Of a stretch of DNA of 64,000 nucleotides, positions 14,346 through 60,899 are shown one piece after another. The DNA lies in assembly GCA_000165345.1 (NCBI GenBank), contig CM000432.1:896001-960000 (forward strand). The letters run 5' to 3'. The notes beneath the pieces are model-generated. The model was not told where the DNA came from. It did not search any database and worked only from the letters and a program-made list of their open reading frames with translations. Numbering within the stretch: the first letter of the stretch is position 1; the number at the start of each line of letters is the position of its first letter. The position numbers were made by a program, and so were the translations under genes.

Positions 14346-14357
14346 GGGGGGGGGGGG
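14346..14357. repeat. G12 homopolymer directly abutting the HemK2 stop codon
   Basis: Twelve consecutive G in a roughly 30% GC context. Reads as C12 immediately 3' of TAA on the coding strand. Confidence 0.9.
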
Positions 14358-39716: not shown

Positions 39717-42700
39717 TTAACTAAAGTTAACATTGATTAACAATACAAACATTAAAATTGACCCAAAAAGCAAAGGTAACTTTACTGGAGTATTCAGAAT
39801 ATAAAAGGGGGAAGTGAGGAATGGTAAAAGTCTCATTGTAGTTTCAACTGAATTCAGAAGATTTGAACATATTGGAAGAATATCATAAACGTCTGGTACC
39901 CATTGCCAAAATTCAATAGTTAATATATGTATTTCAACCATAATATGCATTATATATAATAATGAAGCAGAAAGTAGTAGTGTTGAAATTGGAACAACAT
40001 TCCATAGTCTTATGGTTTTTATTGGCAGAGAATTAATTTCAACATAGCAGTAAACCAATACAAAAGAGATAGTTACAATTGCCAAAACATCTCTGAAAAG
40101 GTCAATAGGCTTCCAAAAATATTTGCATATTCTATGGGAAGTTCTTCTTGAATCAGCCCAAATAAAGAAAGGATATATTTGTGCTTCAAGGACTTGGTAG
40201 TATGAAGTTTCAGAATTACTTTCAATATTGCATAGATTAGCCTTGGAATAATTAATTTCGAAATGTTCAAAGTCTTGGTACTGAATTTCTGTGGAATAAT
40301 GATTTAATTTAAGGAAATTACTGAGCCTAATTTCTGGGCTCTTACTATTAATGGAATTCACAGGGGTTGTAGAGTTAGAAGGTTGAAGTAAATTTAAAGT
40401 ATTTTGAGGTGGATTTAATGAAAAACTATCAGTTACTTGAGTTGTCTTATTATTCCCAGTTTGAATATTCGCATTTGAGATTTCCAAAGGTCCACCATAT
40501 GCAATTTCTCCTACACTTTGCAATCTAATATTGGGATTACTCTGAGTTTTAAGTGAGTTATTTGAAGAATTCTTGGTTAAATACGCACTTGGTGAATTAT
40601 TTCCATTTGAACTTAATATAGAGTTCTTATCATCAATTATAAAAGACTTATTTGTAGATTTTTTATCTCTTGATTGTTTTTTTTCTCCTGAAAATAATGG
40701 AGTACCAATTGAATTGGCTCTGCTCACTTCCTTTGATGAGTAAGATTGAGAAATTAAAATTTTGCTATTTTTAGCATTTGGAAGTAAAATACTTAAAGGA
40801 GTTGAGAGAGCAGAATTAAAGATACTTGAGAGTGAATGGAAATGATATAAAGCAAGAATTACTGATATGATTGGGGAAGAAATCATTGAAAGTAATTGCC
40901 AATAGTATATAAATGCTGTAAAATGGAGAAATGAAACTGTTAATGGGTAAAATCTTGTAAATTGGAAAAGATGAGGATATTGGAATTGATAAAGCTTTCT
41001 ACATGAGTTTATATTACCAAATATAAATGTTAAATCTGCAGAGCTATATTTCCAGTCTCTAGAAATTGAAAATTCTGGACTACTATAACAATTAAAAGGT
41101 AACTTCATGGTAATTAGAAATGAAAATATGAGACAAATAACTTGAACAATAAATAATAAACGGTAACATTTGAAAGTTTTTTCAACATTATTATAACATA
41201 ATTTTGAAATTTCCAAAAATCCAATTTCTGGAATCTCTGTATAAGTATTTTCTGGAGAAAGATTATTCCTGGAAACTAGAAGCTTTTTAATTTGCTTTGA
41301 AGATATATCTTTCATATCAGTTGTTTGAGAAAGCGTGGCATTTCTAAGATTACTATGAAGATAAATTGCTCTCTTTGCTGTTTTAATTACTTGAGCATTT
41401 GTTTGTTCATAAAGAATCATAATTTCTGGTAATAATAAACTATTATTACATTTAAAACAAGAATTCAATTGGTCATACATATTCTCATCAATTCTAAATC
41501 CATGAAAAGTATAAATGATGATTGCTATACAAGTTAGTAATACAAAGCATACGATTTCTTCGTAAATTTGAGAAATTACAATCCATATAAAGAATGTAAG
41601 AATTGAAATTAGCTTTATAAAATTAAAGGCTTTTGAGAATTTGATAATAAGTGAAATAAGTGAATATTGGAATGACTCATAGAGATTTTCGTGATTACTT
41701 CTATACTTTCTCACTGGGAATTCTGAAACTTTATTAATTAAAAAACAAGCTTTAATGGAATTTAAAAGTCCTAACTTAATATTATTTTTTGAAGGAAATG
41801 GGATATTTAGCATAAAAACCAAGCCAAAATCCATTGTAAAATTACATCCCAAATCAGACAATACAGTTTCTTGGTTTATTTGACTTGAATATTTTATCAG
41901 CTTATTCTTAGCTGGATTACAAATCGAATAAAAACTTAAATTTGAATTGCAGTATATGGAAAAAAGTGTCAAAGCTGTAACGAAGCAAAGGATTACAAAT
42001 ACTATATCAGATTTTGTTAGCTTATTTTCCCAAGGAAGATTGGATATTTCTCTTAATTTCTCTATTAAACTCAGCTTGATTGGACAACCTTCATTAGTTT
42101 TACTTGTTCCGAAACTTTCAATAAACTCCATTTGGCCTTTCTCATTCTCAACATTATACATATTATCGTAATTATTATTGGAATTCCAAAAATGATAATT
42201 TTCGCTCTCCGAATTACCAAAATCTTCTTTAAACCCAAAAATATTCTTTTTATCATCAATTCCTACTGAAGAACCCAAATTATCCTCATCTATAGTATCT
42301 TTTTTATTTGAAGAAAAATTCATCTCCCAGTACCCACTCTTTGAATAATAATGTCTAACATTACCACTTTGAGTACCATAATATAAACAATAACTTGGAA
42401 GTCCACCAAATAGTTCAAGAATACTTGAAGGTTTATAATCTATTAAAGCAAGTAAATTTAAGCTCTCCATCAACTGTTCAGCAGAAAATAATTTTACGAA
42501 TCTTGAGGACAAAAGTGCATGCAATACCGGTAATGTGTCTCTCTGACCTTTATATTTATATAAAATTGTGGCGGCCCTTTGCAGAGGGGAATATGCATGC
42601 TCATCAAATGGCGGGAAATCACTCGGAAGAGCATCCAATAAGGCTAGAACATGAATTGCATCTGATGGAGATTTATAACTAACTCTGGTAAGGATTTCTC

Positions 42701-45700
42701 CGATAGTATCGGGTCTGAGCTTAACAATCGAATAAATTGCATCGGTACTAGCTTCACCAAATGGATATAAGAAATGGCTAGGGATAATACTAGGGTGAGC
42801 ATAAGAAGAAGTTGGTAATGAAGAAGGAGAAGAACCGGAATTGAATCCTGAAGGATTTGAGTTTGGTTGTAAGTTTGAGGAGGAAGAAGATGGGTTACAT
42901 TGTTGTTGGTTTGGATGAGAAGTTGAATATCTAAAAAATTGTGGATTTTCATGCAAATATGATCTTCCTTCAAATGGTTCATTAAAAAGATCTCTTGAGA
43001 CTCCTGGATTTGAGAAATACCTAGCAGATTCATCAGCATATTGATCATAAATATCTGGGCTACTTTTCGTTTTGAAGTTTGACGTTTTATACAAACGAGA
43101 ATTTGAGGATTTGTCATTTAATTCTTGGTAAATTGTGTCATGGAAGTTCATCATGTTATTGAAGCTATGATTTTCAATATGACTATTGCTATTTCTCTTG
43201 CAGTATTTGCAATTATTTCTACAGTTTCTCGTATACTTTAAGGAGTCTCTGTATGCTTTGTAGTCTCTATTCTTTGAGTTAAAGGGATCATTACAAATGG
43301 AATTTTCCATCAAATTTCTATTTTTAGAGAAAAGTTCCGTATTCAGAGCCAAAGAATTATTTGAATTGTATTTGAAGGAGCTGTGAGAATTATCAGAATC
43401 AAGTCCAACAGCGTACTCTAATAGTTTTCTAATATTCTCAATGGATTTATGTGAAGGACCTCTTCCAATAACAATTTTTGCAATGCTTTCAGGACTGTCG
43501 TCAACTTTAACATAATTAATGGAGAAGATTGACCTTAATCTTGGAGGAAGGATAGTTAAAGGAAGATCTTCAGGAGGAATAGTGTTAGAAGGAGTTCTAT
43601 TTTGAGACTCTTCATTCTGAAGGAGAAAATTTATATTTGTCCTCCATTTATTATCAAAGAAATTCTTCGTTCCAGTACCACTATTTGCAAAGAATTCTTT
43701 TGGTTCTCTAAGAATTTTCTTTTCAGTTCGATTTGATAAATCTCTTATTAGTTTCTTCTTCTTAAGCTTGAGAGAAAGAACAATATCATCATTTAAATCA
43801 TTTCCAAATAAATTACCATCTTGATGTTCAAAGTGGGAAAATTGGTTCTCATTAAGCTGTAACATGGATGTAATATCAACATTCTTCACATTCTTTAAAA
43901 TATGGACCGAATTCATCACTCTTCTTCTCCATATTGAAGTGCTTCCCATTGTTTCTTCGGAGTATTTCACTGCTATTTCCAGAAGATAGTAAATAATTCT
44001 TGTGGATAACTTCCTACTGACTGCATAATATATTGGATCAGTCATACTGGATCTATTTGACCAGATATTAATGAAAGAGTATGAAATATTAAACTTTTCT
44101 TTCAAGGTATGAATAATACTCTTTAATGCTCTTAAAGGCTGCTTTGATTTTGCCAAAATCTGTAAAATAAGAGGAGAATTGGTTTTTGGATCTTTAAATT
44201 GAAGCATATCAATAATTAGCTTCTTTGGTATTCTCTGAGCCTTTTTGATGATTAAATTTAATGGATAAATACCATATCTATCATCTCTATGGGGATTACA
44301 ATTCTGATAACCTAACCATCTATTACGTATTGCTCTACTATAAAAGTCAAGAATTATTTGTATTTGCTTAATATTACCATAATAAGCAGACCACCAGAAA
44401 GCTCCTCTTCCTTCTTCATCAGTTACTTGACAAATCATTGCTACCTTCTTTTTGCTTTCCATTTTGAGTAATCTATTCAAAATTGAATCTGAGATTCGGA
44501 TTTTAACAATATCAAGAACGTGTCTCGCCTCTTTTTCATAATCCTTCAGTTGTTTGAAGAAGTGATCACGGTTAAATTGTTTTTTAAAAGTCTTTCCTAT
44601 AAGTTTAAGATCAGATTTATCTTGGAAAGTTACATATTCTAATATAATGGATCTAATATCATTATCAGAGGTATTAATATCATAATTAGCATGATTTACA
44701 ATCCTTTCAATCATTTTACCGTCATTTTCACGAATTGCAAGATCCATTACATCTAGACCAGAGATAGGTGAAATTCTTAATGGATCTCCTCCATTGTCCA
44801 TGATCAAGCTTAGCATTGCTCCATTATGGTTTTCTAAAGCTATCATTAAAGGATTTAAACCAGTTCTTGGATCCCATGTATTAACACAAGCTCCATTTGA
44901 GATTAAGATCTCAGCCATTTCAAGATCATTATTTTCAACAGCATAGAATAGAGAGGTATGATTATAGTTATCAACCATATTTACAAGTTTTTTTTGATCA
45001 CATTCTAAATTATGAGTCAAAAGTTCTGGAAAATGAGAATCTGATTGTGTAGATTGACTCTTGGGTAGTTGAGTATATGTGGAAGAACCATCATTTTGAA
45101 GTTGATTCAAAAAATCAAGATCTAGGTCTTTTTTCTTATTAGAGCAATTAGAATATATGGTTGATCTTGAAGAATTAAAATAGCTTAAGGAAGATGAGGG
45201 AGAAGAAGGTAAAGTTGTGGAATTTGAGAATTTGGGAAAAGATAAAGTGGAATGATTAAGATCAGAAGATGAAATATTGGTAATATTAAAGCCAGAGGAT
45301 GAATAGGAATATGTATCAAAATCTTCCGGAGTATTTGGATCATTTTTGGATGTATCATTAACATTTGAAATTTCAGCAAGAATGAATTTGACAATTGAAT
45401 GGTTGGATTTACTTACAGCTAGAGTAAATAATTGAGGAAACTTTTCAAAAATGTGAATATCGAGACCATATTCAATAAGTTTCTTAAGTATATGCAAAGA
45501 TCCACTCCTTTTACGTCTTATAAGATTATATAGAATATGGTATCCTCCTTCAGTATCTAAGACTTTGCTTTTAATATTATTAAGTTTCTTGCAATAGATA
45601 AGATTTCTTTTTTTATATTCAGTATTATAAGTGGTAATATTAAGCATAAGAGGTTCAATAATATCCAAAATAGCTCTTGAGCTCATATCAGTTTCAAGAA

Positions 45701-46280
45701 AATCTGCAATTAGATATAATGGATGAATGTAATATGTAAGTTTTTCTTCTAACGGTACTTTTTGTACTGGCCTTTTGTAATAAATTGGAATAATTGCATT
45801 TTTTCGAATTCTAGCATTAAATGAAAAAAGCATAGATCCATCATGGTTAATAGCAGAATAGAGCTTGTTATCTGAGATATCCTCATGGTCGTTTTCAAAA
45901 TATACTAAACTCTCAAAGAAATCTTCAGTATCGTCAAGTTTTCCTGTTAACAACAGATTCTTTGTAACCTCAGGAAGTTCAACAAGTTCATTAATAAATT
46001 CAGGAAACATCATTTCCTCTCCACCAAGAATTTTATTATCCTTATATAGCTTATCTTCAGATAACTGTTCTAATCCTGCTCTTTTATAGTAGTAATTATC
46101 ATGAACATTGTTGCAATTAGCAATAGGTCCTCTAATTTCAGATCTTTCGACAAATTGAATACTTTTTAAAGCCTCCAAAAAACTCAGAATTAGGAAACAA
46201 ATTAGAATAGTAAAATTAATTCTCTTGGATTCATTATTTCTTAAGAAGACATTTTTTGTCTTATTTTGTGTGTTTTTCAT
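39717..46280 (-). CDS. giant ankyrin-repeat polytopic membrane protein B (2187 aa), tandem paralog of 33578..38788
   Basis: Same architecture: signal, ankyrin block (NHTSLFYAVENNDLEMAEILISNGACVNTWDPRTGLNPLMIALENHNGAMLSLIMDNGGDP), C-terminal multi-TM region. Shared block VAMICQVTDEEGRGAFWWSAYYGN...FYSRAIRN...CNPHRDDRYGIYPLNLII aligns with VICSSTDQNGLTILWWACKLHYPK...FYIQARKL...CNPHKTGNNQIMPIELLI in gene A. Confidence 0.75.
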   Translation of the reverse strand: MKNTQNKTKNVFLRNNESKRINFTILICFLILSFLEALKSIQFVERSEIRGPIANCNNVHDNYYYKRAGLEQLSEDKLYKDNKILGGEEMMFPEFINELVELPEVTKNLLLTGKLDDTEDFFESLVYFENDHEDISDNKLYSAINHDGSMLFSFNARIRKNAIIPIYYKRPVQKVPLEEKLTYYIHPLYLIADFLETDMSSRAILDIIEPLMLNITTYNTEYKKRNLIYCKKLNNIKSKVLDTEGGYHILYNLIRRKRSGSLHILKKLIEYGLDIHIFEKFPQLFTLAVSKSNHSIVKFILAEISNVNDTSKNDPNTPEDFDTYSYSSSGFNITNISSSDLNHSTLSFPKFSNSTTLPSSPSSSLSYFNSSRSTIYSNCSNKKKDLDLDFLNQLQNDGSSTYTQLPKSQSTQSDSHFPELLTHNLECDQKKLVNMVDNYNHTSLFYAVENNDLEMAEILISNGACVNTWDPRTGLNPLMIALENHNGAMLSLIMDNGGDPLRISPISGLDVMDLAIRENDGKMIERIVNHANYDINTSDNDIRSIILEYVTFQDKSDLKLIGKTFKKQFNRDHFFKQLKDYEKEARHVLDIVKIRISDSILNRLLKMESKKKVAMICQVTDEEGRGAFWWSAYYGNIKQIQIILDFYSRAIRNRWLGYQNCNPHRDDRYGIYPLNLIIKKAQRIPKKLIIDMLQFKDPKTNSPLILQILAKSKQPLRALKSIIHTLKEKFNISYSFINIWSNRSSMTDPIYYAVSRKLSTRIIYYLLEIAVKYSEETMGSTSIWRRRVMNSVHILKNVKNVDITSMLQLNENQFSHFEHQDGNLFGNDLNDDIVLSLKLKKKKLIRDLSNRTEKKILREPKEFFANSGTGTKNFFDNKWRTNINFLLQNEESQNRTPSNTIPPEDLPLTILPPRLRSIFSINYVKVDDSPESIAKIVIGRGPSHKSIENIRKLLEYAVGLDSDNSHSSFKYNSNNSLALNTELFSKNRNLMENSICNDPFNSKNRDYKAYRDSLKYTRNCRNNCKYCKRNSNSHIENHSFNNMMNFHDTIYQELNDKSSNSRLYKTSNFKTKSSPDIYDQYADESARYFSNPGVSRDLFNEPFEGRSYLHENPQFFRYSTSHPNQQQCNPSSSSSNLQPNSNPSGFNSGSSPSSLPTSSYAHPSIIPSHFLYPFGEASTDAIYSIVKLRPDTIGEILTRVSYKSPSDAIHVLALLDALPSDFPPFDEHAYSPLQRAATILYKYKGQRDTLPVLHALLSSRFVKLFSAEQLMESLNLLALIDYKPSSILELFGGLPSYCLYYGTQSGNVRHYYSKSGYWEMNFSSNKKDTIDEDNLGSSVGIDDKKNIFGFKEDFGNSESENYHFWNSNNNYDNMYNVENEKGQMEFIESFGTSKTNEGCPIKLSLIEKLREISNLPWENKLTKSDIVFVILCFVTALTLFSIYCNSNLSFYSICNPAKNKLIKYSSQINQETVLSDLGCNFTMDFGLVFMLNIPFPSKNNIKLGLLNSIKACFLINKVSEFPVRKYRSNHENLYESFQYSLISLIIKFSKAFNFIKLISILTFFIWIVISQIYEEIVCFVLLTCIAIIIYTFHGFRIDENMYDQLNSCFKCNNSLLLPEIMILYEQTNAQVIKTAKRAIYLHSNLRNATLSQTTDMKDISSKQIKKLLVSRNNLSPENTYTEIPEIGFLEISKLCYNNVEKTFKCYRLLFIVQVICLIFSFLITMKLPFNCYSSPEFSISRDWKYSSADLTFIFGNINSCRKLYQFQYPHLFQFTRFYPLTVSFLHFTAFIYYWQLLSMISSPIISVILALYHFHSLSSIFNSALSTPLSILLPNAKNSKILISQSYSSKEVSRANSIGTPLFSGEKKQSRDKKSTNKSFIIDDKNSILSSNGNNSPSAYLTKNSSNNSLKTQSNPNIRLQSVGEIAYGGPLEISNANIQTGNNKTTQVTDSFSLNPPQNTLNLLQPSNSTTPVNSINSKSPEIRLSNFLKLNHYSTEIQYQDFEHFEINYSKANLCNIESNSETSYYQVLEAQIYPFFIWADSRRTSHRICKYFWKPIDLFRDVLAIVTISFVLVYCYVEINSLPIKTIRLWNVVPISTLLLSASLLYIMHIMVEIHILTIEFWQWVPDVYDILPICSNLLNSVETTMRLLPFLTSPFYILNTPVKLPLLFGSILMFVLLINVNFS

Positions 46281-46784: not shown

Positions 46785-48458
46785 TTAACCGTCCCTAGAG
46801 TCACCAAAAGACTCCATATTTGGATTTTGCTCAATATTGTTCTGAACAGGATCTTTTTTCTTAGATACAGAGCTAAGAACATCGTCTATTCTGAGGAGCA
46901 TAAGAGTGGCTTCTACAGCAGTCTTATAGACTTGTTGCTTGACAGCAAGTGTATCCCAGATGCCGAGTTCCGTAACATTTGTAATAGCGCCAGTACATCC
47001 ATTAATTCCATGAACAGGTTTCTGCCCCCTGGTTGCAGATGAAGGTAGATAATGAGATTTTAATAAAGTCAAAGTCTTCATTACATTAGCTCCACAATTT
47101 TGAGCTAGAGTCTTTGGTATAATTTCCAGAGCTTGGGCGAAAGCTTTGTAGGCCCATACTTGGGTATCATCAATAGAAAATGACTTTTCATTCAAGTAAC
47201 AAGAAATGGCCATTTCTGTACCACCTCCGCCAGGAAGTAGAGCTGGATCAAGAAGGATATTTCTTGCAACAGCAAGAGCGTCATGGAGATTTCTCTCGAG
47301 CTCATTTAAGACGTCCTTGGATCCTCCTCGTAAAAGAATGGAGCATGCCTTTGGAGTTTTTGATTCGGTCAGGAAGCAAAAGTATTCATCTCCAATCTTC
47401 TTGACCTCGAATCTTCCGCAGCAAGTACCTACATCATTTGGTGTAAGCTCTTCTGTTCTGCTAGCAATAGTAGCTCCAGTGACTCTAGCGATTCTATTAT
47501 TATCGCTCTTCCTGACCCTTCTAATTACAGAAATTCCTGCCTTAACAAGGAAGTGTTGAGCAAGATCAGAAACACCTTTTTCTGTGAATACAACATTGCA
47601 ACCAGTTGCAATAATATCCTTACACATAGCTTCAACTTCTTCCTCCTCCTGTCTTAATAGAGCCTCCCAGTCTGCCTCCTTAGTGATTTCTACATTTGTC
47701 TGACTTTCGCCTTTCTTGTATTCAAGAGTACAGTCCAATAACAAAACCTTTGGATTAATGATCAATCTCTTCATTCGCGGGTGGACTACATCCTTGTTAA
47801 CAACTACACCATCTAAAACATAGCTATCCTCAATCTCACCTCCTGGAATCTTTTCAATTCTTACATATCTCTTAATATCAATTTCTTTTGGTGAACCTGA
47901 ATTAGCAATTGAGACAGTCTCAGCTGCTTTTAATGCCATAGAACTAATTAAACTACCCCATCTTCCAGAAAATTTAGTTTTTAAACAGGAGTCAACTACA
48001 CTAACCAAAGATTCTTTGTTATTTACATCCAATTTAACGCTCATTTCCTCCATGAACTTTATAGAGTCATCTAGTGCTCTTAAATAACCCTTTGCTATAA
48101 TTGTTGGATGTATGTTTTTCTGTAAGAGTGGCTCTGCACAAGCCAAGAACTCTCCTGCTAGAACTACAACACTTGTTGTTCCATCTCCTACTTCTTCATC
48201 TATAGTTCTTGAGAGTTCAATTATAGACTTTGCTCCTGGATGAGCAACATCAACCTCTCTCAAAATACTGTTTCCATCATTTGTAAGAACTATTCCACCC
48301 AAAGGATCTAAAAGCATTTTTAACATTGCTTTTGGGCCCAAAGTTGTTCTAACAACATCTGCAACAGTTTTTCCAGCTTGAATATTTCTTAACTGGGCTT
48401 TTCTTCCTTGATCTCTTTGAGAAGGTTGTTGTACAACCAAAACTTGATTTGGCATCAT
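46785..48458 (-). CDS. CCT3: T-complex protein 1 subunit gamma (CCT3)
   Basis: 557 aa. [43 protein letters not shown]...[17 protein letters not shown]...[16 protein letters not shown]...[14 protein letters not shown]...[16 protein letters not shown]...[19 protein letters not shown] matches CCT-gamma blocks. Confidence 0.92.
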
Positions 48459-48917
48459 CTTTAATTAATTCAAGTTAATATCCTTCTCTTAATAAGATTT
48501 CTTCCCCACTTAGCGATACTAAGGACTAGCTGATCGACTTTCCTTCAAATTGAGAATTAAATGATGAGTATTAATTAATTTTTTTTTGATAAAAGAGTTT
48601 TAATTAATATTTCACCATATAAAACCTTATTTTAGTGCTTAAACTTATTAGCTTCTTTTCCCCACCTTTTTCCCTCTATTATTTTATTTATTTTCTACTT
48701 ACTCAAACTGTCTATTTAGACTTTTTAATCCTATTAAATAGACGAATTGCTTTATTATTCTTTAAAATTAGACTATATATGTAATTTACTAGCTATGCTA
48801 ATTTTATTATTTATTTAATAGACAATCTGTTCTAGTTATATTATTTTAATTTATTAACTTATTCACATAAATAGCATATATAATAAATAAATTTAATATA
48901 TATGATATATATAAATT

Positions 48918-48925
48918 TGGCGCCA
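48918..48925. promoter_or_regulatory. E2F-like TGGCGCCA in the shared CCT3/CCT7 divergent promoter
   Basis: aaatTTGGCGCCAAgtg lies between divergent genes. GGCGGG at 49206 and its complement CCCGCC at 49145 are in the same 1.3-kb region. Confidence 0.55.
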
Positions 48926-49774
48926 AGTGTGCTTTATTCATGATCACTAAATAATCAAGAATAATTGATTTAATTTAAAAATAAATATCAAAAAGTTTAT
49001 CCTAGTAAATTAGATATTGGAATCAATAATTGGATTCCATATTGTTTACTGTTATATTTTCTTAATTGTCTGTATTAATTTACTCATCTTTCTCTCACCT
49101 CCTTTTTTATCGGTACCCATTATTAAAAAATTATTTTTTGTTGCCCGCCTAAATGTTTTATTAATTAATTTATATTTTGTATTAATTTCAAGTAATTATA
49201 AGTTTTGGCGGGTAATTGATTAAATAATTAAATATAAATTATCAACAATTGTTAAATTAAATTTTAATTAAGAATTAATAAATAAATTTCGAGACGTAAA
49301 ATGTAATAAATATAAATAAAGTTTGACCCCACGGGAATAAGAATTAAATAAAGGTAGAAAAAAAAGTGAATAAAAGGCTTTGGGGGGAAAATAGAAAGTA
49401 AGTCCAAGCTAAATAGTAAATTGCCGATTTTGGAATATACGGGAAGCACTACAACCAAAAACCAGAATTTAAGAGGAGATTTTTCAGAATTAGACCTTTA
49501 CAGGGAAGATTTGAATTTATTTAGCCTTGTAGGAAAAGCTATTTCTGATTATTTTTTTTCTTAATAACAGAAAAACATATATTAATATTGGTAAATTAAT
49601 TAGTATATATAAGCATATATATTTATATAGATTTAATATTTGAGTTACTGCATAACTAAGTAAAAGCTAGTTTGGGTCATAATATTGGAAGAAATATAAA
49701 TATATAGACTTTAATATAGAATCATATTATAATAGATAATTGGTAATAAGAAAAAAAAAAGTAGTATTGAAGAA

Positions 49775-51448
49775 ATGTTGAGAGCTCCAATAATTCTTTT
49801 GAAAGAAGGATCAGATACATCCCAAGGTAAAGGTCAAATCTTGAGTAATATCACAGCATGCCAAGCAATTGTTGATATTGTCAAGACGACTTTGGGTCCA
49901 TATGGCATGGATAAACTTATTCATAGCGGTAACTCTCCAGATGATGTAACAATTACCAATGATGGAGCAACAGTCTTGAATTTACTTGGAATTGTGCATC
50001 CTGCAGCAAAACTATTAGTAGAGATAGCAAAGGCACAAGATGATGAGGTTGGAGATGGTACTACAAGTGTAGTAATTTTAGCAGGCGAATTCTTAAAAGA
50101 AGCAAAGGGCTTTATTGAAGATGGAATGTCTCCACAAGTAATAATATCAGGTTTTAGAAAAGCAAGCCAAATAGCAATAGACAAGGTAAATAGTATGAAG
50201 ATCAGCCTTTCCGAGGAGACTCCAGAAAAGAGACGAAGTATGTTAATAAAATGTGCTGAGACAACTTTGAACTCAAAGTTATTAGCTCATTATAAGACTC
50301 ATTTTGCAGAAGTTGTAGTCGATGCTGTTTCATACTTGGATAATGAAATGGATAAAGACCTCATTGGGATTAAGAAGATTAATGGAGGGTCAGTTATGGA
50401 TAGTTTTCTAGTAAAGGGAGTAGCATTTAAGAAGACATTTTCATACGCAGGTTTTGAACAACAGCCAAAACATTTTGTGAATCCTAGAATCCTCTTATTA
50501 AATCTTGAATTGGAACTTAAGGCAGAGAAGGATAATGCTGAAGTTAGAATCTCTGACCCCACTGCCTACCAAAGTATTGTAGATGCAGAGTGGAAGATTA
50601 TCTTTGAGAAATTGGATCTCATTGCCAATTCAGGAGTAAATGTGGTTTTAAGCAGACTTGCAATTGGAGATTTGGCTACTCAGTACTTTGCTGATAGAAA
50701 TATCTTTTGTGCTGGAAGAGTTGAGGAGCAGGACCTTAAGAGAACCTCTTTGGCAACAGGAGCCATTGTGCAAACAACAGTTTATGGCTTAAACAAAGAT
50801 AGTGGAGTATTTGGTACTTGTTCTGAATTCGAAGAGGTTCAAATTGGAGCTGAGAGATATAATATCTTCAGAGACTGTGCAAAGACAAAGTCATCCACAA
50901 TGATCTTGCGTGGTGGTGCTCAGCAATTTATTGATGAAGCTGAGAGATCCTTGAATGATGCAATTATGATTGTAAGAAGAGCAATGAAATCATCATATAT
51001 TGTTCCTGGAGGAGGAGCTATTGAAATGGCTGTTTCTAAGACTATTAGAGATCACGCTAGAACAATTCTTGGTAAGGAGCAATTAGTCATGAATTCTTAT
51101 GCAAGAGCTCTAGAAGCAATTCCTAGATCCTTAGCAACAAACTCTGGGTTTGACTCCATTGATATCTTAAACAGACTTAGACAAAAGCACTCACAAAACA
51201 CCGAAGATTGTAGTAATTATGGTGTAGATTGCAGCAACGGAGGGATTTGCGATACTTTTAACTCATTCATTTGGGAGCCAGCTGTGAATAAGCTTAGTGC
51301 TTATTCAAGCGCAACAGAAGCTGCATGCTCTATTCTTTCTATTGATGAGACTGTTAAAAACAAGTCCAGTGAGGAGGATAGAATGCAGGGTCCTCTACCT
51401 GGAATGGGTGGTATCCCTCCAGGTATGATGGGCGGAGCAAGGAGATAA
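49775..51448 (+). CDS. CCT7: T-complex protein 1 subunit eta (CCT7)
   Basis: 557 aa. [44 protein letters not shown]...[54 protein letters not shown] closely matches CCT-eta. Gly/Met-rich C-terminal tail ([15 protein letters not shown]) is typical of CCT subunits. Confidence 0.92.
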
Positions 51449-52119: not shown

Positions 52120-55100
52120 ATGAATAGAAGAATTTTTAAAGAAACAAAGTTATTTTGGATTTTAATTCCAATTATAATATGTATAATATCACTTTCAACG
52201 AATATTTTTGATATTAATTCAATTGAAAAGAATAACAAAATATTTAAACTATGGAATGGAATATTAGAGAATGGAGATAAATTTTTAACAATAAGAAAGC
52301 TGGTAGGATTATCAAGAAATAAAGAATATAATCATAAGAAATATCCAATATTACGCCCAAAATATAATATTAGAGAAAAAAACAAGGTAAAAAATTGGAA
52401 TGACTTAGGGGTAGTATTGCAAAGTAAATGGCCACAAGTACCGTTAGAAGCTTCATTGATAGAATTTCTATCAGAGTTTTACCTAGGAATAGGAAGTACA
52501 TTTGAAGACTTAGTGAGAGATTTAATTAATATAAATAACCACGAAGATGGAAATAAAATTATTACAGCAAGGTTAGCAAGTGAATTGGTTGATAATAATC
52601 TAGGGATCAAATTAATGGAGACTATGGTAATTAATAAATACTATTCTCCTAGAATTGAGTCAATTCGAACATTAGAAAGAAATCAAAGAAGTGTTTTTGG
52701 AATAATATGCAAAAAGGCTAGTTGGTTTATTGTTATATATCAAGAAGAGACTGTTGATACATTTTGTAATTCCAATGATCTTTATAATAGTGTAATAAAA
52801 GGGAGATCTAAAGGATTTGAGAATGTAGAAAAATATGATTTAAGCTTCTCAAAATTTGATTTAGCAAAAGAACATATAATTGAAAATACTTATATCAATA
52901 TAGAAGAAAACAATAAAGTGAAAAAAATTGATATTTACGCATATGTCGATTTTTCAGAAGATAATTCTATAGAAATTTTGAATAACTTATTGAATATTTG
53001 GGATATATTAAAAGATCAAGGTCATGTAAGAATAAAAATTAGACATTGTGATAATGCTGATCTGAATGGTGAGATTGAATATTTATCTGGATTTGGAGTT
53101 TCAGTGAATAAACTATCAGAAAAATCGAATTCAGTAAATAATTCAAGTTCAGCTAAAAATGATATTTTTCAAAATGAGTTTAAATTCTCCCAACATAATC
53201 ATGATGAATTGGAATATTCTCACAAGGATGAAGAGTATAAAAACTTGACCGCAATGTGCGATAAAGCTGTGAATATGGAAAATGTATTAAATTCTGATGG
53301 GGATTTATCTATTGAATGTATGAAAGATATTGGAGCATTTCTAGTATCATTATCCAAAAGATTTGAGGACCAATTAGGTGCAATGGTACATTATTTAGAG
53401 AATTTTGGGACTTATCAAGTAGCATTGTGTAATGGATTAAGAGAAAACACTACTTTATCGGGCTATAATCAATTGCATGATCGTGTTTCAGAAGGATCCA
53501 CATTCTTTACTCTTAATGGAAGATTATTTTCCCCAACCGAAACAAATTTTTTTAATTTGGTTACTTTATTAAAGAGTTTAATTTTCTCAAAAATCAGATT
53601 AATGAAAAATAAGATCGATGATGAAGTTGTTATTATAGATTCTTTATCAATAACCGGAGTAAATGAGAAGGAAGAACTAAATCTATTTATGGAAAGTATT
53701 AATGGCCAATTGAATGATTCAAGAATTAATAACAAGTATAATAATGTAATAAAAGATAAGGGGTTAAAAAACCTAATAGAGAGAGGAGAAGTTCTTGATT
53801 TTGGCTCAATACTTGAATTTGAGAAGGATTTAGAAGAAGATCCAACTTTAATGGACGATACAGATTGGCTTGGGAAAAGAGAATATGTATTATCAAGCTC
53901 ATCTCCATGGCTGAAGAATTCTCCAAGAACTGATTGGAGAGTATCAAATATTCTTCCTTTGAAATCACGTCATTTTTACAAGGATATTACTAATATTGGT
54001 GATTCTCAATGGGGTGTGACTCCTAGTATTTTTGAAAAGGTATGGTTTCATAGAAACATTACTGAAAATAATGAAGATCAAGAGGATATTATTAATGATC
54101 TTGAAGAAAATAACTCCACTGAAGCGAAGATTTTACAAGAAATTGAATATTCACCATGGATAATGTACAGGATATATTTTTCAAATCAGGTTAAAAATTC
54201 GAGATTAATTCAAGATTATCCAATATATGATATTATGAAGGAACCAGAAAATACACTGGGTCAGTATTTATATCCATTAGAGAGTTTGCCAGAATTATTT
54301 GAAAAATATCCTGAAAATGTAGGGATTTATCCAGTCAAGGCTACAATTCTCGAAATAATAATAATGTGTGATCCATTTGATATAGAATGTATTACAGTGA
54401 CCATTGAAATGATTAATAAGAAGTGGCCAATAAAGTTAAACTTGTTATTAATAGACCCAGAATGGGTTAATTCCAGAAAGCCGGATTATTCTAGACCATT
54501 TTCATACAAAAATGTGACTTCAGAAGATGATTTTGAAGCTAAGTTTAGAGATATTTATGAAACTCAGAGAGAAATAGAAATTAATAAGGAAGGAAATCAA
54601 ACATACTGTAATAAAAATTATGGAGAGGAAAATGTTCAGAATTGCCCAAAGTGGATGAATAAGAAAAGAGGATTAAATTCTAGGAGGATATTGGATTACT
54701 ATGAGAAATTTGACAATAATTCAAAAGGAGAATATGCCTTGAAATTGGCAATTTCAGAAGTTTTTGGATTCTTGGTTTCTTCTTCTACAATTCAAGGAAT
54801 GTTTCTTGCAAGAGGTTTTATTGAAATGGTTGCAAAGAATTTACCATTAATATTAGAAGAAGAATTTACTTTAAGTCAGTTTCAAGAGTTTTTGAGTAAA
54901 TTCTTTGCTCATTTTAGTATCAATGCAGAATTAACCAAAGTTTGGGAGATTATTTATTCCAATAATCCAAATGATATATCTTACGTGAATAAGGTGGTAT
55001 CGTATTGTAGACTTAAAGGATTCACAACTCCTGGAGCTTTAGTTAATGGTTACTTTGTGGAAATTACTGATTTAATATTGGAAGAAGTAATCTATGGAAT

Positions 55101-58100
55101 AGCTAAAAAAGAACAGAGAATTATTTTGGAAGGTGTTAAACAAGGTCAAATCACCAGTAGTGATGATATTTATCATTATATATTTAATAATACATTAACT
55201 GGAATTAATTCAGTACCTATTGTTTTTCCACCATTCACAAAGTCGATGAAGTTTGAGAATTGGCCATTTATTGGAATACAAAATGAATGGAAACATATTG
55301 AAAAAGAAATCAATTATAAGCTTCATGAAAAATATGATATTGATAATTTGAAAGAAAATAGTAAGAAAAATGAAAATAATTCAATTTCTTACAAAGAAGA
55401 TAAAAGTGAATATCAAATCACCATTTTGGAAGAAAATGATAATGAGGAAAGGATTTTATTTGATTTTGAAGAATTATCAAGTTTGGAATATTCAACATTA
55501 TGGGATATTAATCCTGAATTAAAGCAAAATATGGAAAGTATTGAAAATAAGAGTCAATCAACTCCATGGATTACATTTATTGTATTAGTAAGATCATCGA
55601 GAACAGGATTATTAGGACTTTTAACTTTGATTGATTATTGGATTTCTACATTATCTTATCAAGCATCTATGCATCTGAATCAGTATAATGAATTATTATA
55701 TAATAGAAGATTCAGATTAATGTTTATTCCACCAAATGAAGTTCAACATAATTCAGATTTCTCACTGATTTTAGAAAAATGTATTGATGATATCTTATAT
55801 TTGAAAAAATATAACAAGGAAGGAAGAAAGATTTCATCTTTTGTTCCAATTTTGGAAAAGTTAAGGTTTATTAAATGGTTTGTCAAAGTAATCTTAGAGA
55901 ATATGGATGATTATATGGATTCTAGTCATTCTAAAATTAAAAGTGAGTTATTTGGAGAAAGAATTATTGAGATTTATGAGTCCCTTTCTTTTAGCTTTTT
56001 TGGAAAGTCTGGAAATGGGAGATTTAACGAAGAGAATTTAGAAGATATTTATTTAATTGAGTCTCAGAATAGAGTCAAAAACAAGTTGGTAAGTAAATTC
56101 TCATCTAGAAAAGAAAAAGAGGTAATATCTTTTCCATATTCTTCAGTGGGAAATGCTAAGTTAAAGGGTTTTCCAAAGTATACAAATTATAATTTAAATA
56201 AAGAAAAGTCTGATCCAAATTATGGAAGAGGAAGTTTCCAAGATACTGAATTATCAAATAAGGATTGTTTTGAAACTTTCACAATGGGAATTGTTATAAA
56301 TGGTGTCTATTTAAGAATTTGTCCAAATACATATCCTGTTTATTTGAGAAATGATATTAAAGTAAATTATTGGTCTTCTCCAATTCATTCTGTACATTTT
56401 AAACTATTGGAAACTGCAGTAACGAATAGAATGAGGCATTTGGTTTTATTTGGAGAGTTTAAGAGGACAGGAAAAAAGGAAGATCTTCTTTATAGAAGAA
56501 AATGGTCAAATATGGATCCAAACCAATTTTTTATGTTATTTAGTGAGCATTTACATGTTTCAAATTTATTCAAATCTGAATCTTTAATACAATTGGACGA
56601 CATTTTTGCTTCTTCAAGTTCACTTATTAAGCTTCATTTACCGACTGTTAATACAGGGAAAAGTTCAAATTTTAAAAATAATGCTTTGATTGGATTAGTG
56701 GCTGTAGTGAATCCCATTACACCTTATAGTACCAATATATTGAGATTATTTGATATTTTACATCAATTATTGGAAGCCGATGTAAAGCTGGTGTATAATC
56801 CTGTGATAAGTTATCAGAATATTAATGAGATTAATTTGATTGATACGTGGAGAAGGTATGTTTTTAATTATCCAAAGCTCAAATCATATAGGAAAGATAC
56901 TCCATATCAAGTAGTGACAAGCTTAAAGGAGCTAATGTATTCCAAAGGAGATCCAAGTGAATTTAAGATAGGTAAAGATGATTTATACTATTATAATTCT
57001 CAATTCATTGCAAAGTTCGATATACAAACAGAAAAGAGACTCAATATTAATATAGAAAAAAGTAATGATTGGAGTATAAGTTACTTAAAAACTATTTTTC
57101 GTCAATCAACAATTAGTAAAGAAAATGATTATTTTATTGTACCTGGTAATATTTCCAATGCAAAAGGAGAGTTATTGGTTTATGAACTTAAAGGTAAAGA
57201 GTTTGAAGCAACATTAATAGATAAATTGTCATCAGAAGTTGGGAATCTCAAGAATAATATAAAAGAAATTCAATTAATATTGCCATCAAGTAATTTCAAA
57301 TTTGAAATTGAATCTAAAAAAGTGTCACCAATACAAAAGATTTATTCAATAACTGATTTTAATAGTTTCTTTGGTTATCTTGGGATTGGAACTAATGATT
57401 TGGTACTAACTTTTGGTAGTGATATTAATAATAATACTACTAAGAAAGAAAATTTATCTATGAGTTTTCCAATTCAAGTATTTAATCAGAGATTATTTGA
57501 AACCAATCAATTTGTTGTACACCTTTCAAAATTATCAAAGATAAATAAAGAAAAAGTAAATTATGTAGAATTTAAAGAAAATTCAAGAAGATTATTTAGA
57601 GAGTTACATATTTTCTGTTTATCAACTCATATATTGAAAAAAGATGTTGAAGGAGATATAATAGATAAATTAATTGATCTAATTGATAAAGGATTTACAG
57701 GAAAAGCTGGAAATTACTATAATAAATTTATTATTTATTTTGATAGTAAAGATATTAGTCAAACAATAAGAGATTATTTCAACTACAAGTTATTTTGGAA
57801 ATATTATATAAATATAGAATATTTGGAAATTACAAGACCAAAATGGATACCTAGATTATCAAGTCAAAATAATAATTCAATGATGGATATTTTATTAACA
57901 TTAGAACATTGGATACCAACAAGAGTTAATAAATTGTTATTATTGGATCCATTTTTGTTGAATAGTAATACTTTTGATTTGGATGATTATTTTGGTCTAG
58001 TAAGTACAAATAAGACAATAAGTAATAATAAGATAAAAATAGGAGATTCAGCAATGACATTTATTAAAAAAAATGATAAAAGTGGATCAATAAGTACAAA

Positions 58101-58326
58101 AATGGGATTAATTTTGGTGAATAATTACAAGAAAATTGGGAGTTATTTAAAAAGAGCTTATTTTGAAATGTATTATGATTTTGAAGTTAGTAAGAAATTA
58201 AGACAAAATGAAGAAAATAATCAAAGTATGATGGATTTATTTATTTCTTATTTGAGAAGTAATAAAGAACTCAAGATTGAAGATGATACATATGAAAAAG
58301 ATCAAAACAAAATCCCAATTACTTAA
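52120..58326 (+). CDS. UDP-glucose:glycoprotein glucosyltransferase (UGGT)-like ER lumenal protein, 2068 aa, with apparently degenerate catalytic DxD
   Basis: Signal peptide MNRRIFKETKLFWILIPIIICIISLST. N-terminal LEASLIEFLSEF resembles UGGT LLEASEFLAEDS and MVINKYYSPRIESIR resembles UGGT LSLRSYSATIQAFQ. C-terminal GT24-like region has LHIFCLSTHILKKD (UGGT INIFSVASGHLYER), KFIIYFDSKD, YLEITRPKWIPRL (UGGT YKWPRWL), ILLTLEHWIPTRVNKLLLLDPFLL (UGGT ILFLDVLFPLVVDKFLFVDADQIV) and TFDLDDYFGLV (UGGT DFNLDGAPYGY). The catalytic DAD is replaced by D-P-F. Confidence 0.55.
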   Translation: MNRRIFKETKLFWILIPIIICIISLSTNIFDINSIEKNNKIFKLWNGILENGDKFLTIRKLVGLSRNKEYNHKKYPILRPKYNIREKNKVKNWNDLGVVLQSKWPQVPLEASLIEFLSEFYLGIGSTFEDLVRDLININNHEDGNKIITARLASELVDNNLGIKLMETMVINKYYSPRIESIRTLERNQRSVFGIICKKASWFIVIYQEETVDTFCNSNDLYNSVIKGRSKGFENVEKYDLSFSKFDLAKEHIIENTYINIEENNKVKKIDIYAYVDFSEDNSIEILNNLLNIWDILKDQGHVRIKIRHCDNADLNGEIEYLSGFGVSVNKLSEKSNSVNNSSSAKNDIFQNEFKFSQHNHDELEYSHKDEEYKNLTAMCDKAVNMENVLNSDGDLSIECMKDIGAFLVSLSKRFEDQLGAMVHYLENFGTYQVALCNGLRENTTLSGYNQLHDRVSEGSTFFTLNGRLFSPTETNFFNLVTLLKSLIFSKIRLMKNKIDDEVVIIDSLSITGVNEKEELNLFMESINGQLNDSRINNKYNNVIKDKGLKNLIERGEVLDFGSILEFEKDLEEDPTLMDDTDWLGKREYVLSSSSPWLKNSPRTDWRVSNILPLKSRHFYKDITNIGDSQWGVTPSIFEKVWFHRNITENNEDQEDIINDLEENNSTEAKILQEIEYSPWIMYRIYFSNQVKNSRLIQDYPIYDIMKEPENTLGQYLYPLESLPELFEKYPENVGIYPVKATILEIIIMCDPFDIECITVTIEMINKKWPIKLNLLLIDPEWVNSRKPDYSRPFSYKNVTSEDDFEAKFRDIYETQREIEINKEGNQTYCNKNYGEENVQNCPKWMNKKRGLNSRRILDYYEKFDNNSKGEYALKLAISEVFGFLVSSSTIQGMFLARGFIEMVAKNLPLILEEEFTLSQFQEFLSKFFAHFSINAELTKVWEIIYSNNPNDISYVNKVVSYCRLKGFTTPGALVNGYFVEITDLILEEVIYGIAKKEQRIILEGVKQGQITSSDDIYHYIFNNTLTGINSVPIVFPPFTKSMKFENWPFIGIQNEWKHIEKEINYKLHEKYDIDNLKENSKKNENNSISYKEDKSEYQITILEENDNEERILFDFEELSSLEYSTLWDINPELKQNMESIENKSQSTPWITFIVLVRSSRTGLLGLLTLIDYWISTLSYQASMHLNQYNELLYNRRFRLMFIPPNEVQHNSDFSLILEKCIDDILYLKKYNKEGRKISSFVPILEKLRFIKWFVKVILENMDDYMDSSHSKIKSELFGERIIEIYESLSFSFFGKSGNGRFNEENLEDIYLIESQNRVKNKLVSKFSSRKEKEVISFPYSSVGNAKLKGFPKYTNYNLNKEKSDPNYGRGSFQDTELSNKDCFETFTMGIVINGVYLRICPNTYPVYLRNDIKVNYWSSPIHSVHFKLLETAVTNRMRHLVLFGEFKRTGKKEDLLYRRKWSNMDPNQFFMLFSEHLHVSNLFKSESLIQLDDIFASSSSLIKLHLPTVNTGKSSNFKNNALIGLVAVVNPITPYSTNILRLFDILHQLLEADVKLVYNPVISYQNINEINLIDTWRRYVFNYPKLKSYRKDTPYQVVTSLKELMYSKGDPSEFKIGKDDLYYYNSQFIAKFDIQTEKRLNINIEKSNDWSISYLKTIFRQSTISKENDYFIVPGNISNAKGELLVYELKGKEFEATLIDKLSSEVGNLKNNIKEIQLILPSSNFKFEIESKKVSPIQKIYSITDFNSFFGYLGIGTNDLVLTFGSDINNNTTKKENLSMSFPIQVFNQRLFETNQFVVHLSKLSKINKEKVNYVEFKENSRRLFRELHIFCLSTHILKKDVEGDIIDKLIDLIDKGFTGKAGNYYNKFIIYFDSKDISQTIRDYFNYKLFWKYYINIEYLEITRPKWIPRLSSQNNNSMMDILLTLEHWIPTRVNKLLLLDPFLLNSNTFDLDDYFGLVSTNKTISNNKIKIGDSAMTFIKKNDKSGSISTKMGLILVNNYKKIGSYLKRAYFEMYYDFEVSKKLRQNEENNQSMMDLFISYLRSNKELKIEDDTYEKDQNKIPIT

Positions 58327-58374
58327 TAATACTTACTTATTATGATTTGAATTTTATTTTCCTAAGATACAATT

Positions 58375-59583: not shown

Positions 59584-59596
59584 TATTTTTTTTTCT

Positions 59597-59613
59597 CTCT
59601 CTCTCTCTTATAA
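59597..59613. repeat. (CT)8 / GAGA-type dinucleotide tract in the 5' leader of the tRip-like gene
   Basis: tttctctctctctctctcttata lies 14 bp upstream of the ATG on the minus strand. An E2F-like TGGCGCCA is at 59695-59702 and ACCGGT motifs at 59747 and 59773. Confidence 0.6.
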
Positions 59614-60182
59614 ATGTAAAATTTAGTCTTTAAATTCGATTAGAATTTCTTTATTTAAGTAATTATTTTATAATTTATAAAAAAATTTGTGTTTTGGCGC
59701 CACATTTTTTTTAATCAAAAAAAAAGTACCGATAATTTTTTCTATACCGGTTACACGTAATTAAGTTATAAACCGGTATTTTTTTTTTTTTTTTTAATTT
59801 AAACAAAAATAAAAATTTGAAATTATGATATAATTGAACAATTATTAAATAAATCAATATATTCTGAAGATTAGCACTAATAAAATATTTTGAATTTAAC
59901 ATTTAAATAGTAAATGAAAGTACAAATTCAATAAACTTAGAACCCAAAGGAATATACAAAAACTCCGCCCCACACTATCATCTTTTGGATCTATTAACAA
60001 TATTAAACATAAATTGAATTAATTATTTTTGTGTGTATTGATAAAGAGATATTTTTTCTTTGTTATTATTATTATTTAATACATAAACAAAAAAAAAAAA
60101 AAGAAAAAGAAAGTGCATAAAAAAGAATTCAGAGTTGAAATTAAATATAATATAACAAACATTAACATTTTACTAATAAATT

Positions 60183-60893: not shown

Positions 60894-60899
60894 TTATTA

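Follow-up and report, generated by a model that had tools for sequence, protein, structure and literature searches.

A head-to-head pair of CCT gamma and CCT eta genes conserved across Cryptosporidium, with E2F-like and G-box motifs between them

The genes for two subunits of the chaperonin CCT, gamma and eta, stand head-to-head on opposite strands of the C. parvum DNA that we analysed, a stretch of 64,000 nucleotides (the window). Their start codons lie at 48458(-) and 49775(+), as the original prediction had it (Table 1). We assigned a subunit when the full-length HMM score exceeded both the curated equivalog cutoff and the score of every other CCT subunit model. By this rule cgd4_3850 is a CCT gamma (TIGR02344 on ORF 46785-48458(-): 835 bits, cutoff 553; next CCT model alpha, 383) and cgd4_3860 a CCT eta (TIGR02345 on ORF 49775-51448(+): 809 bits, cutoff 669; next CCT model alpha, 419). 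The top matches in PDB are all CCT gamma chains for the former (E 4e-202) and all CCT eta chains for the latter (E 4e-201), and the proteins are exactly identical to C. parvum QOY42050 and to QOY42049, respectively. TIGRFAM scores, PDB matches and protein identity thus confirm the predicted identities of the two subunits. The gene identifiers come from the supplement of PMC3542205 and were confirmed by mapping the primers of Mauzy, which fall at 48242-48263(-) for cgd4_3850 and at 50879-50900(+) for cgd4_3860. Since the gamma and eta proteins are only 29% identical, the pair does not result from a recent duplication.

Table 1. Genes and intergenic features of the CCT gamma-CCT eta locus (positions in the window).
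Feature	Position	Strand	Remarks
CCT gamma (CCT3), cgd4_3850	46785..48458	(-)	557 aa, intronless, uninterrupted ORF
Divergent intergenic region	48459..49774	.	1316 bp, 22% GC
Third G-box GCTAAGTGGGGAAGA	48500..48514	(-)	~50 bp upstream of gamma ATG; invariant in four intestinal species
Purine-rich 25-nt G-box block AGAGGGAAAAAGGTGGGGAAAAGAA	48653..48677	(-)	~200 bp upstream of gamma ATG
Conserved near-palindrome AACTGTCTAT(A)TAGACTTTT	48706..48725	.	Two invariant blocks in four species
Putative palindromic E2F/DP-type site TTGGCGCCAA	48917..48926	.	TGGCGCCA at 48918-48925
GGTACC hexamer	49112..49117	.	Kept in C. meleagridis and three gastric species
E2F-like box TTTAGGCGGGCAAC, towards gamma	49140..49153	(-)	CCCGCC on + strand, 49144-49149
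E2F-like box TTTTGGCGGG, towards eta	49203..49212	(+)	GGCGGG at 49207-49212
Conserved 12-mer TCGAGACGTAAA	49289..49300	.	Invariant in four species; matches no known motif class
G-box near eta, CGTGGGGTCA in gamma sense	49324..49333	(-)	Invariant in four intestinal species
CCT eta (CCT7), cgd4_3860	49775..51448	(+)	557 aa, intronless, uninterrupted ORF

Three E2F-like sites occupy the centre of the spacer. The palindromic one was found exactly where it had been predicted and, read as TTTGGCGCCAAG (48916-48927), agrees with the E2F/DP consensus TTTSGCGCSAAA at 11 of 12 positions. Its part TTGGCGCCA (48917-48925) does not vary between C. parvum, C. meleagridis, C. ubiquitum and C. canis, the place equivalent to 48917-48926 reads TTGGCGCG in C. 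bovis and C. ryanae, and C. serpentis and C. andersoni carry TGGCGC; the site is kept at the equivalent position in eight of the nine Cryptosporidium species compared. The other two are oppositely oriented GGCGGG boxes, one per gene, which had been predicted at 49145 and 49206 and are indeed present, each displaced by one position. The box facing gamma, TTTAGGCGGGC on the minus strand at 49143-49153, agrees with the core of motif 4 among the published C. parvum motifs (motif 3, DTTGSCGCCH; motif 4, TTTGGCGGGAAV; PMC3734150). It reads GGCGGGC in C. meleagridis, C. canis, C. bovis and C. ryanae and is absent in C. ubiquitum (AAGCGGG). The box facing eta is, in gamma sense, CCCGCC in C. meleagridis, C. 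ubiquitum, C. canis and C. ryanae, and CCCGC in the gastric species. Over the window, TGGCGCCA occurs 5 times and GGCGGG 18 times, against 0.05 and 0.84 expected from shuffles, i.e. enrichments of 20- to 100-fold. All five of the former and 16 of the latter fall outside ORFs of 150 aa or more; the non-coding share of the window is only 31%. By consensus, distribution and conservation, the spacer sites 48917-48926, 49140-49153 and 49203-49212 are putative E2F/DP sites. They are not specific to this pair, since the E2F core is found in 11 intergenic regions of the window, most of its intergenic regions carry TGGCGCCA and GGCGGG, and no upstream motifs are more abundant in C. parvum, where 163 of 200 expression clusters, covering 2,379 genes, have them over-represented (PMC3734150).

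Around the E2F-like sites lie G-boxes. This class (G.GGGG) has been described in C. parvum, including upstream of heat-shock genes, with motif 2 (DTGTGGGG) and motif 6 (KKGRGGGGRR) as its representatives (PMC3734150), and the boxes of the spacer fall into it by both sequence match and conservation. CGTGGGG near eta and GGTGGGG near gamma are found in all nine species compared, and each of the nine has two or more copies of SGTGGGG, against 0.00-0.11 expected. These two oriented boxes had been overlooked in the original prediction. The block at 48653-48677 is the longest invariant one in the four-species alignment, and the third G-box probably lies in the 5' UTR or core promoter of gamma. All of them (CGTGGGG, GGTGGGG, AGTGGGG) are in gamma-sense orientation. 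Other conserved blocks are harder to place. The near-palindrome reads GTCTATATAGAC in C. canis and C. ubiquitum, and ACGTCTC, from the region of the 12-mer, is also present in C. ryanae. The GGTACC hexamer had been predicted at 49100; it exists, 12 bp away. It adjoins the CCCGC box wherever it is kept, is missing in C. ubiquitum, C. canis, C. bovis and C. ryanae, and occurs 11 times in the window against 2.3 expected. The evidence that it is functional is weak. The three gastric species, 94% identical over the spacer, are too close for footprinting among themselves. Each footprinted motif class is far above shuffle expectation, and the order CGTGGGG, CCCGC(C), (GGCGGGC), TGGCGC, GGTGGGG recurs unchanged in species from each of the three clades compared. 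One might speculate that this genus-wide, collinear syntax of oriented G-box, three E2F-like sites and oriented G-box is a dedicated chaperonin regulatory module that drives both genes and has kept CCT3 and CCT7 side by side ever since Cryptosporidium arose. We find this unlikely. If it were true, the earlier link of G-boxes to C. parvum heat-shock genes would make the spacer a bidirectional promoter for chaperone genes, compact and conserved, and a test bed for the function of E2F/DP and G-boxes in the parasite.

The spacer is long, about 2.6 times the published mean intergenic distance of C. parvum, which is 504 bp (PMC7840661). Its 1316 bp are measured from ATG to ATG, not between transcription start sites. 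The usual definition of a bidirectional promoter asks for less than about 1 kb between the two transcription start sites. Such a length might conceal a third, unannotated transcript, either a lncRNA or a small gene, promoted by the central E2F sites. E2F is the top motif upstream of published C. parvum lncRNAs, 33 of which are intergenic, and the conserved blocks at 49289-49333 and 48706-48725 have no assigned role. But about 720 bp suffice as spacer in the gastric species, and six-frame peptides compared with six species gave no conserved coding ORF in the spacer, where the longest stop-to-stop frame is 77 aa. Similarity between species is equal over all frames and both strands and is gone beyond close relatives, which points to conservation of DNA and not of coding sequence. 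Neither Rfam, run at the gathering threshold over the whole window and in E-value mode on 48400-49830, nor a tRNA scan gave a credible match; the sole one was the bacterial DapZ (E=0.96). Neither cgd4_3850 nor cgd4_3860 appears in the supplementary tables of the lncRNA paper, which may use other identifiers. A hidden transcript is thus very improbable. A repeat search in the spacer returned AT-rich low-complexity matches only, and a scan for bacterial promoters and terminators, uninformative for a eukaryote, gave counts equal to shuffle expectation. We also considered, and set aside as speculation, an intron in the 5' UTR of eta (GTAAGT at 49399, then poly-T and a CAG ending at 49571), the signals of which are not conserved in C. 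canis.

The original prediction saw a single shared promoter in these 1.3 kb. With separate conserved blocks adjoining each gene, the region does not look like one compact promoter and resembles a central E2F cluster accompanied by elements near either ATG. Taken to its extreme, this would mean two fully independent promoters, with the E2F cluster serving gamma only, eta relying on its own proximal region, and nothing functionally shared. The E2F site lies at a near-constant distance from the gamma ATG (420-531 bp in eight species) and at a variable one from the eta ATG (186-850 bp), so that it could serve gamma only; the three GTGGGG boxes share the gamma sense, and the long spacer has room for two promoters. 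This reading nevertheless sits badly with the two opposed GGCGGG boxes, one towards each gene, and with the gastric species, where the whole E2F/G-box cluster lies 105-205 bp from the eta ATG. It also sits badly with the ATAC-seq peaks of C. parvum, in which E2F is the dominant motif: more than half of all peaks are bidirectional, and those bearing E2F are mostly annotated as such (bioRxiv 10.1101/2025.01.17.633476). We hold full independence to be doubtful.

Why are the two genes neighbours? It was proposed that the layout provides stoichiometric co-expression, i.e. that it was selected because one shared bidirectional promoter gives gamma and eta in fixed amounts. Conservation of the layout and of the E2F cluster between the genes speaks for this idea. 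Nine further Cryptosporidium species (ten in all) retain the pair together with its neighbours on either side, a UGGT-like gene and one for an ankyrin membrane protein; among these species are C. meleagridis, C. ubiquitum, C. canis, C. bovis, C. ryanae, C. serpentis, C. muris and C. andersoni. Since numerous independent assemblies and read sets of C. parvum show the layout as well, it is not an artefact of one isolate's assembly. An apparent rearrangement in C. felis, with gamma and eta on different contigs, was rejected: the gamma contig simply stops 510 bp before the start codon, at a break in the assembly. The remaining six CCT genes (cgd2_600, cgd2_900, cgd5_1880, cgd6_5080, cgd7_3180 and cgd7_4220) are spread over chromosomes 2, 5, 6 and 7. 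With eight CCT genes among the roughly 3,900 genes of the genome, we estimate that some 0.014 adjacent CCT pairs are expected by chance, so the adjacency of two of the eight is improbable and may bring some selective benefit. But the flanking genes are conserved as well, and conservation of the pair thus reflects general synteny. Six of the eight subunits are dispersed, so a shared promoter cannot serve the entire complex. Beyond the genus the arrangement, which had been suggested for comparison in other apicomplexans, does not hold: the two genes are not adjacent in Neospora or Cyclospora, and P. falciparum has them on different chromosomes, eta on 3 and gamma on 12 (PMC5423778).

Expression data weigh further against a shared promoter as the source of coordination. 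We computed correlations from the supplementary qRT-PCR data of Mauzy 2012, which cover 72 h of infection in seven time points. The gamma and eta mRNAs co-vary as expected of a bidirectional pair (r=0.965 over the seven time points, 0.927 at replicate level), whereas the flanking gene cgd4_3840 is uncorrelated (r=-0.11); the profiles are therefore not independent, which would have spoken against the proposal from the start. Both genes were on the same qPCR plate (plate 73), which inflates their correlation. Yet unlinked subunits correlate as well or better (gamma with delta, cgd5_1880, r=0.982; alpha with delta, r=0.972), gamma with alpha gives r=0.962, and even the unrelated gene cgd6_5070 matches gamma equally (r=0.965). 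Hence adjacency is not needed for co-expression. Tandem and divergent C. parvum genes are not correlated as a norm (Mauzy 2012), and among the published expression clusters listed, alpha falls with delta and theta with cgd7_4220. Stoichiometric expression finds no support either: the measured gamma/eta transcript ratio is 21- to 82-fold, although these values are uncorrected for primer efficiency and do not refute a 1:1 ratio. Considering also that the motifs are generic, selection of the layout for fixed amounts of gamma and eta seems to us unlikely.

We consider it fairly probable that this is an ordinary divergent pair, in which the E2F cluster fires both ways, each gene has proximal elements of its own and co-expression of CCT is achieved in trans. 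Gamma and eta would be paralogues of ancient origin, brought next to each other before the diversification of the genus and kept so within a larger syntenic block. The spacer would speak the generic promoter vocabulary of the genus: three central E2F/DP-type sites (TTGGCGCCAA and the two opposed GGCGGG boxes), with GTGGGG G-boxes and gene-proximal conserved blocks on either side of them. If factors bind there as the motifs suggest, the central cluster would mark one region of open chromatin shared by the two genes, as in more than half of the C. parvum ATAC-seq peaks, and transcription would start on both sides of it. Coordination of gamma with eta would then come from the control in trans of all eight CCT genes through common motifs, and not from adjacency.

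The gamma-eta layout is real and conserved in the genus, but it is largely ordinary. That bidirectional promoters are prevalent was already known, as were the genes and the motifs themselves, and our finding adds little beyond this. Still, if the E2F cluster drives both genes, the spacer is a defined and evolutionarily footprinted bidirectional promoter for Cryptosporidium. It could then provide a compact two-gene expression cassette for transgenesis, particularly in its gastric-species form of about 720 bp, and a concrete locus for testing the function of E2F/DP and G-boxes, which reviews describe as still unvalidated. The expression data on CCT, for their part, show subunits that are coordinated without being neighbours.

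The closest parallels are the E2F bidirectional promoters of C. parvum itself (bioRxiv 10.1101/2025.01.17.633476; PMC3734150), which share with our locus the organism, the TGGCGCCA, GGCGGG and G-box motifs and the position of the site between divergent genes. A second such E2F site lies in the window at 59695, between the genes at 58375-59583(-) and 60183-60893(+). Unlike the others, the gamma-eta pair encodes subunits of one complex, and its spacer is long, with three E2F-like sites and oriented G-boxes in an order kept genus-wide. In human, HSPD1 and HSPE1 (Hsp60 and Hsp10) are also head-to-head, and their short spacer with heat-shock elements was shown experimentally to be a bidirectional promoter. 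In both cases two partners of a chaperonin system are divergent, and the intergenic promoter is proposed to coordinate them. But the human genes encode a group I chaperonin and its co-chaperonin, whereas gamma and eta are paralogues, two of the eight subunits of a group II chaperonin, and the 1.3 kb between them carry E2F-like and G-box motifs. Divergent histone pairs (H2A-H2B, H3-H4) of yeasts and many protists, whose shared upstream elements are experimentally required, are similar in that subunits of one hetero-oligomer are transcribed divergently from a shared regulatory region. Among histones, however, every partner is paired, whereas in CCT only two of the eight subunits are, and the unlinked ones are equally co-expressed.

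The window derives from a Cryptosporidium parvum chromosome of ~1.1 Mb, and its two facing chaperonin genes can be named with precision. Both ORFs match Cpn60_TCP1 over their full length. The gamma ORF scores 835 bits against TIGR02344, the gamma model (cutoff 553), and the eta ORF 809 bits against TIGR02345, the eta model (cutoff 669), the remaining CCT subunit models reaching less than half these scores on either ORF; the subunit assignments predicted by these curated models are unambiguous. Among solved structures, the top matches are chains of CCT gamma and CCT eta from mammals and yeast (~E 1e-200). The proteins exactly match C. parvum entries QOY42050 and QOY42049, with the Iowa II entries XP_625960 and XP_625961 as near members of their clusters, and the gamma and eta ORFs contain the sites of the qRT-PCR primers published for cgd4_3850 and cgd4_3860, respectively, which fixes the gene identifiers. 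These ORFs and scores, together with two opposed start codons separated by 1316 bp of 22% GC (the spacer), confirm the head-to-head arrangement of the original prediction. The adjacency itself was already known, annotation having placed the genes side by side ever since the first genome release. Gamma and eta share only 29% protein identity and are thus ancient paralogues; this rules out a recent inverted duplication as the origin of the pair.

Coordinates of genes, motifs and other features (window positions)
Feature	Position	Strand	Remark
ORF beside the 12-G run	14358-15122	-	stop codon abuts the run
12-G run	14346-14357		reads C12 at 3' UTR start
Region without ORF of at least 80 aa	10665-13100		~2.4 kb, either strand; GGCGGG at 11034 and 12361
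cgd4_3830	33578-38788	-	ankyrin-repeat protein
cgd4_3840	39717-46280	-	ankyrin protein, nine transmembrane helices
CCT gamma (cgd4_3850)	46785-48458	-	557 aa, uninterrupted
GCTAAGTGGGGAAGA	48500-48514		invariant, ~50 bp upstream of gamma ATG
G-box block	48653-48677		purine-rich, 25 nt, invariant
AACTGTCTAT.TAGACTTTT	48706-48725		near-palindrome, invariant
TTGGCGCCA	48917-48925		E2F palindrome, invariant
TGGCGCCA	48918-48925		E2F
GGTACC	49112-49117
CCCGCC	49144-49149
GGCGGG	49207-49212
TCGAGACGTAAA	49289-49300		invariant
TGACCCCACG	49324-49333		G-box, invariant
CCT eta (cgd4_3860)	49775-51448	+	557 aa, uninterrupted
cgd4_3870	52120-58326		2068-aa ORF, large signal-peptide protein, UGGT-like in other species
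Convergent gap	58327-58374		48 bp
tRNA_bind-domain protein	58375-59583	-	second divergent pair
Spacer of second divergent pair	59584-60182		TGGCGCCA at 59695
V-SNARE	60183-60893	+	second divergent pair
Convergent gap	60894-60899		6 bp

The arrangement is neither an artefact nor peculiar to one isolate. The pair recurs in many independent C. parvum assemblies and, with the same two flanking genes, in eight further species: C. meleagridis (spacer 1302 bp), C. ubiquitum (1263 bp), C. canis (1211 bp), C. bovis (1107 bp), C. ryanae (1073 bp), C. serpentis (716 bp), C. muris (723 bp) and C. andersoni (725 bp). Its presence in both gastric and intestinal species places its origin before these two groups separated. 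Consecutive accession numbers belong to the two proteins of C. hominis; the C. felis contig ends 510 bp upstream of gamma. The extra length of intestinal spacers lies mainly on the eta side, gastric ones measuring ~720 bp. The pairing is not common to the other apicomplexans compared: gamma has no chaperonin neighbour in Neospora caninum or Cyclospora cayetanensis, and in Plasmodium falciparum the two genes are on different chromosomes, eta on 3 and gamma on 12 (PMC5423778, Table 1). Both flanking genes being kept as well, the pair has persisted no more firmly than synteny across the block in general. Chance adjacency of two among eight CCT genes is unlikely; by our own estimate ~0.014 adjacent pairs are expected (28 pairs x 2/3,900), a figure that is post hoc across the many multi-subunit complexes of the genome.

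Among the neighbours, cgd4_3870 matches no Pfam family at 1e-5. Orthologues in the corresponding position in C. serpentis, C. muris and C. andersoni match Glyco_transf_24 (UDP-glucose:glycoprotein glucosyltransferase), and the C. parvum gene may be a highly diverged UGGT. The large ankyrin-repeat genes cgd4_3830 and cgd4_3840, in tandem on the minus strand beside gamma, may be paralogues.

The spacer motifs are real, with some correction. TGGCGCCA lies exactly where predicted, the CCCGCC and GGCGGG boxes are each one base off (49144 and 49207), and GGTACC is present at 49112 rather than at the proposed 49100. At whole-window level none is a chance occurrence: relative to shuffles, TGGCGCCA is found 5 times (0.05 expected), GGCGGG 18 times (0.84) and GGTACC 11 times (2.3). 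All five TGGCGCCA and 16 of the 18 GGCGGG fall outside long ORFs, in a window just 31% non-coding. Oberstaller et al. (2013; PMC3734150) found E2F (5'-TGGCGCCA-3') to be the most over-represented upstream motif in C. parvum, in 163 of 200 expression clusters and 2,379 genes, and likewise classed GGCGGG (motif 4, TTTGGCGGGAAV) as E2F-like; E2F also dominates sporozoite ATAC-seq peaks (2025 preprint, 10.1101/2025.01.17.633476). Within the window, 11 different intergenic regions contain the E2F core [CG]GCGC[CG], and a second divergent pair with TGGCGCCA between its genes shows that E2F in a divergent spacer is commonplace. Hence, the motifs are genuine promoter vocabulary, but generic and not chaperonin-specific. 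At three places in the window GGTACC lies at most 35 bp from a GGCGGG/CCCGCC box (46477/46487, 49112/49144, 62965/62977), and it is 12 bp from a CCCGC box in C. serpentis, C. muris and C. andersoni; the two may form a composite motif (post hoc binomial estimate for the window, ~0.005).

Conservation within the spacer is sparse. In an alignment of C. parvum, C. meleagridis, C. ubiquitum and C. canis, invariant positions make up only 35% of the C. parvum spacer, the C. canis spacer having 41% GC, and invariant runs of at least nine bases are few. Across nine species one element order holds from eta to gamma: CGTGGGG, (ACGTCTC), CCCGC(C), (GGCGGGC), TGGCGC, GGTGGGG, parentheses marking elements missing in some species; every motif class far exceeds its shuffle expectation. 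The G-boxes, overlooked in the original prediction, are all in gamma sense and are arguably the more telling element for a chaperonin. In eight species the E2F site keeps a near-constant distance to the gamma ATG (420-531 bp), and lies 186-850 bp from the eta ATG. The constant distance to gamma and the uniform G-box orientation speak for two promoters that act entirely independently, the E2F cluster belonging to gamma alone, a reading that we nevertheless regard as improbable.

The spacer was searched for a third gene because its length is 2.6 times the mean intergenic distance published for C. parvum, 504 bp (PMC7840661). It has no Rfam or tRNA match, its longest open frame is 77 aa, and nothing is listed in the lncRNA catalogue under cgd4_3850 or cgd4_3860. 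Similarity across species is as strong in one frame or strand as in any other, which points to conservation at the DNA level. A hidden transcript is thus, in our judgement, very improbable. Upstream of eta, a consensus GTAAGT at 49399 is followed by a T-rich tract ending in CAG at 49571. One might speculate that these signals bound a putative 173-nt 5' UTR intron of eta; C. meleagridis retains them, C. ubiquitum has weaker versions and C. canis lacks them.

Does adjacency produce co-expression? In the data of Mauzy et al. (2012; PMC3305300; 3,302 genes, seven time points, four replicates), we computed correlations on log geometric means of the supplementary values. Gamma and eta do co-vary (r=0.965 over the seven time points), peaking at 6 h, dipping at 12 h, rising again at 24-36 h and falling by 72 h; both were on one qPCR plate, which inflates replicate-level correlation. 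The neighbour cgd4_3840, expressed late (36-72 h) in contrast to gamma, is uncorrelated (r=-0.11). Yet co-variation is not peculiar to the linked pair, which ranks third among 28 CCT pairs. Gamma correlates better with delta on chromosome 5 (r=0.982), as does alpha with delta (r=0.972), gamma-alpha reaches 0.962, and the unrelated cgd6_5070 equals eta (r=0.965 with gamma). The six other subunits lie on chromosomes 2, 5, 6 and 7; alpha and delta share cluster 5, and theta and cgd7_4220 cluster 65, of PMC3734150. The predicted co-expression thus stands as an observation, but does not need linkage. Nothing supports a 1:1 output: measured gamma/eta ratios are 21- to 82-fold, from qPCR lacking efficiency correction that cannot settle stoichiometry. 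That the arrangement was selected for stoichiometry seems to us rather improbable, unlinked subunits being equally well or better correlated.

We favour, as reasonably probable overall, a different reading. The central 300 bp (48917-49212), with one palindromic E2F site and two oppositely oriented GGCGGG boxes, would most likely form a single nucleosome-depleted region like those reported across the genome, to which each gene would add its own proximal conserved elements. Gamma/eta coordination would then be one case of eight-gene CCT coordination in trans, via shared factors, with no requirement for adjacency.

Elsewhere in the window, the 12-G run occurs in a genome of 29% GC. The 2.4-kb region without long ORFs has no Rfam match at the gathering threshold and may conceal a gene with introns, a small gene or a non-coding RNA. 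Two convergent gene pairs end so close together that their 3' ends and terminators must overlap, illustrating extreme genome compaction.

The motifs have been published, as has the abundance of bidirectional promoters; in a partial coverage of the literature we found no paper noting the gamma/eta pair or its conserved motif order. In practice, this well-footprinted locus would be of value mainly as a defined bidirectional promoter and as a place to test how E2F and G-box motifs function in Cryptosporidium. In idea, the pair is comparable to the human HSPD1/HSPE1 pair and to divergent histone pairs.
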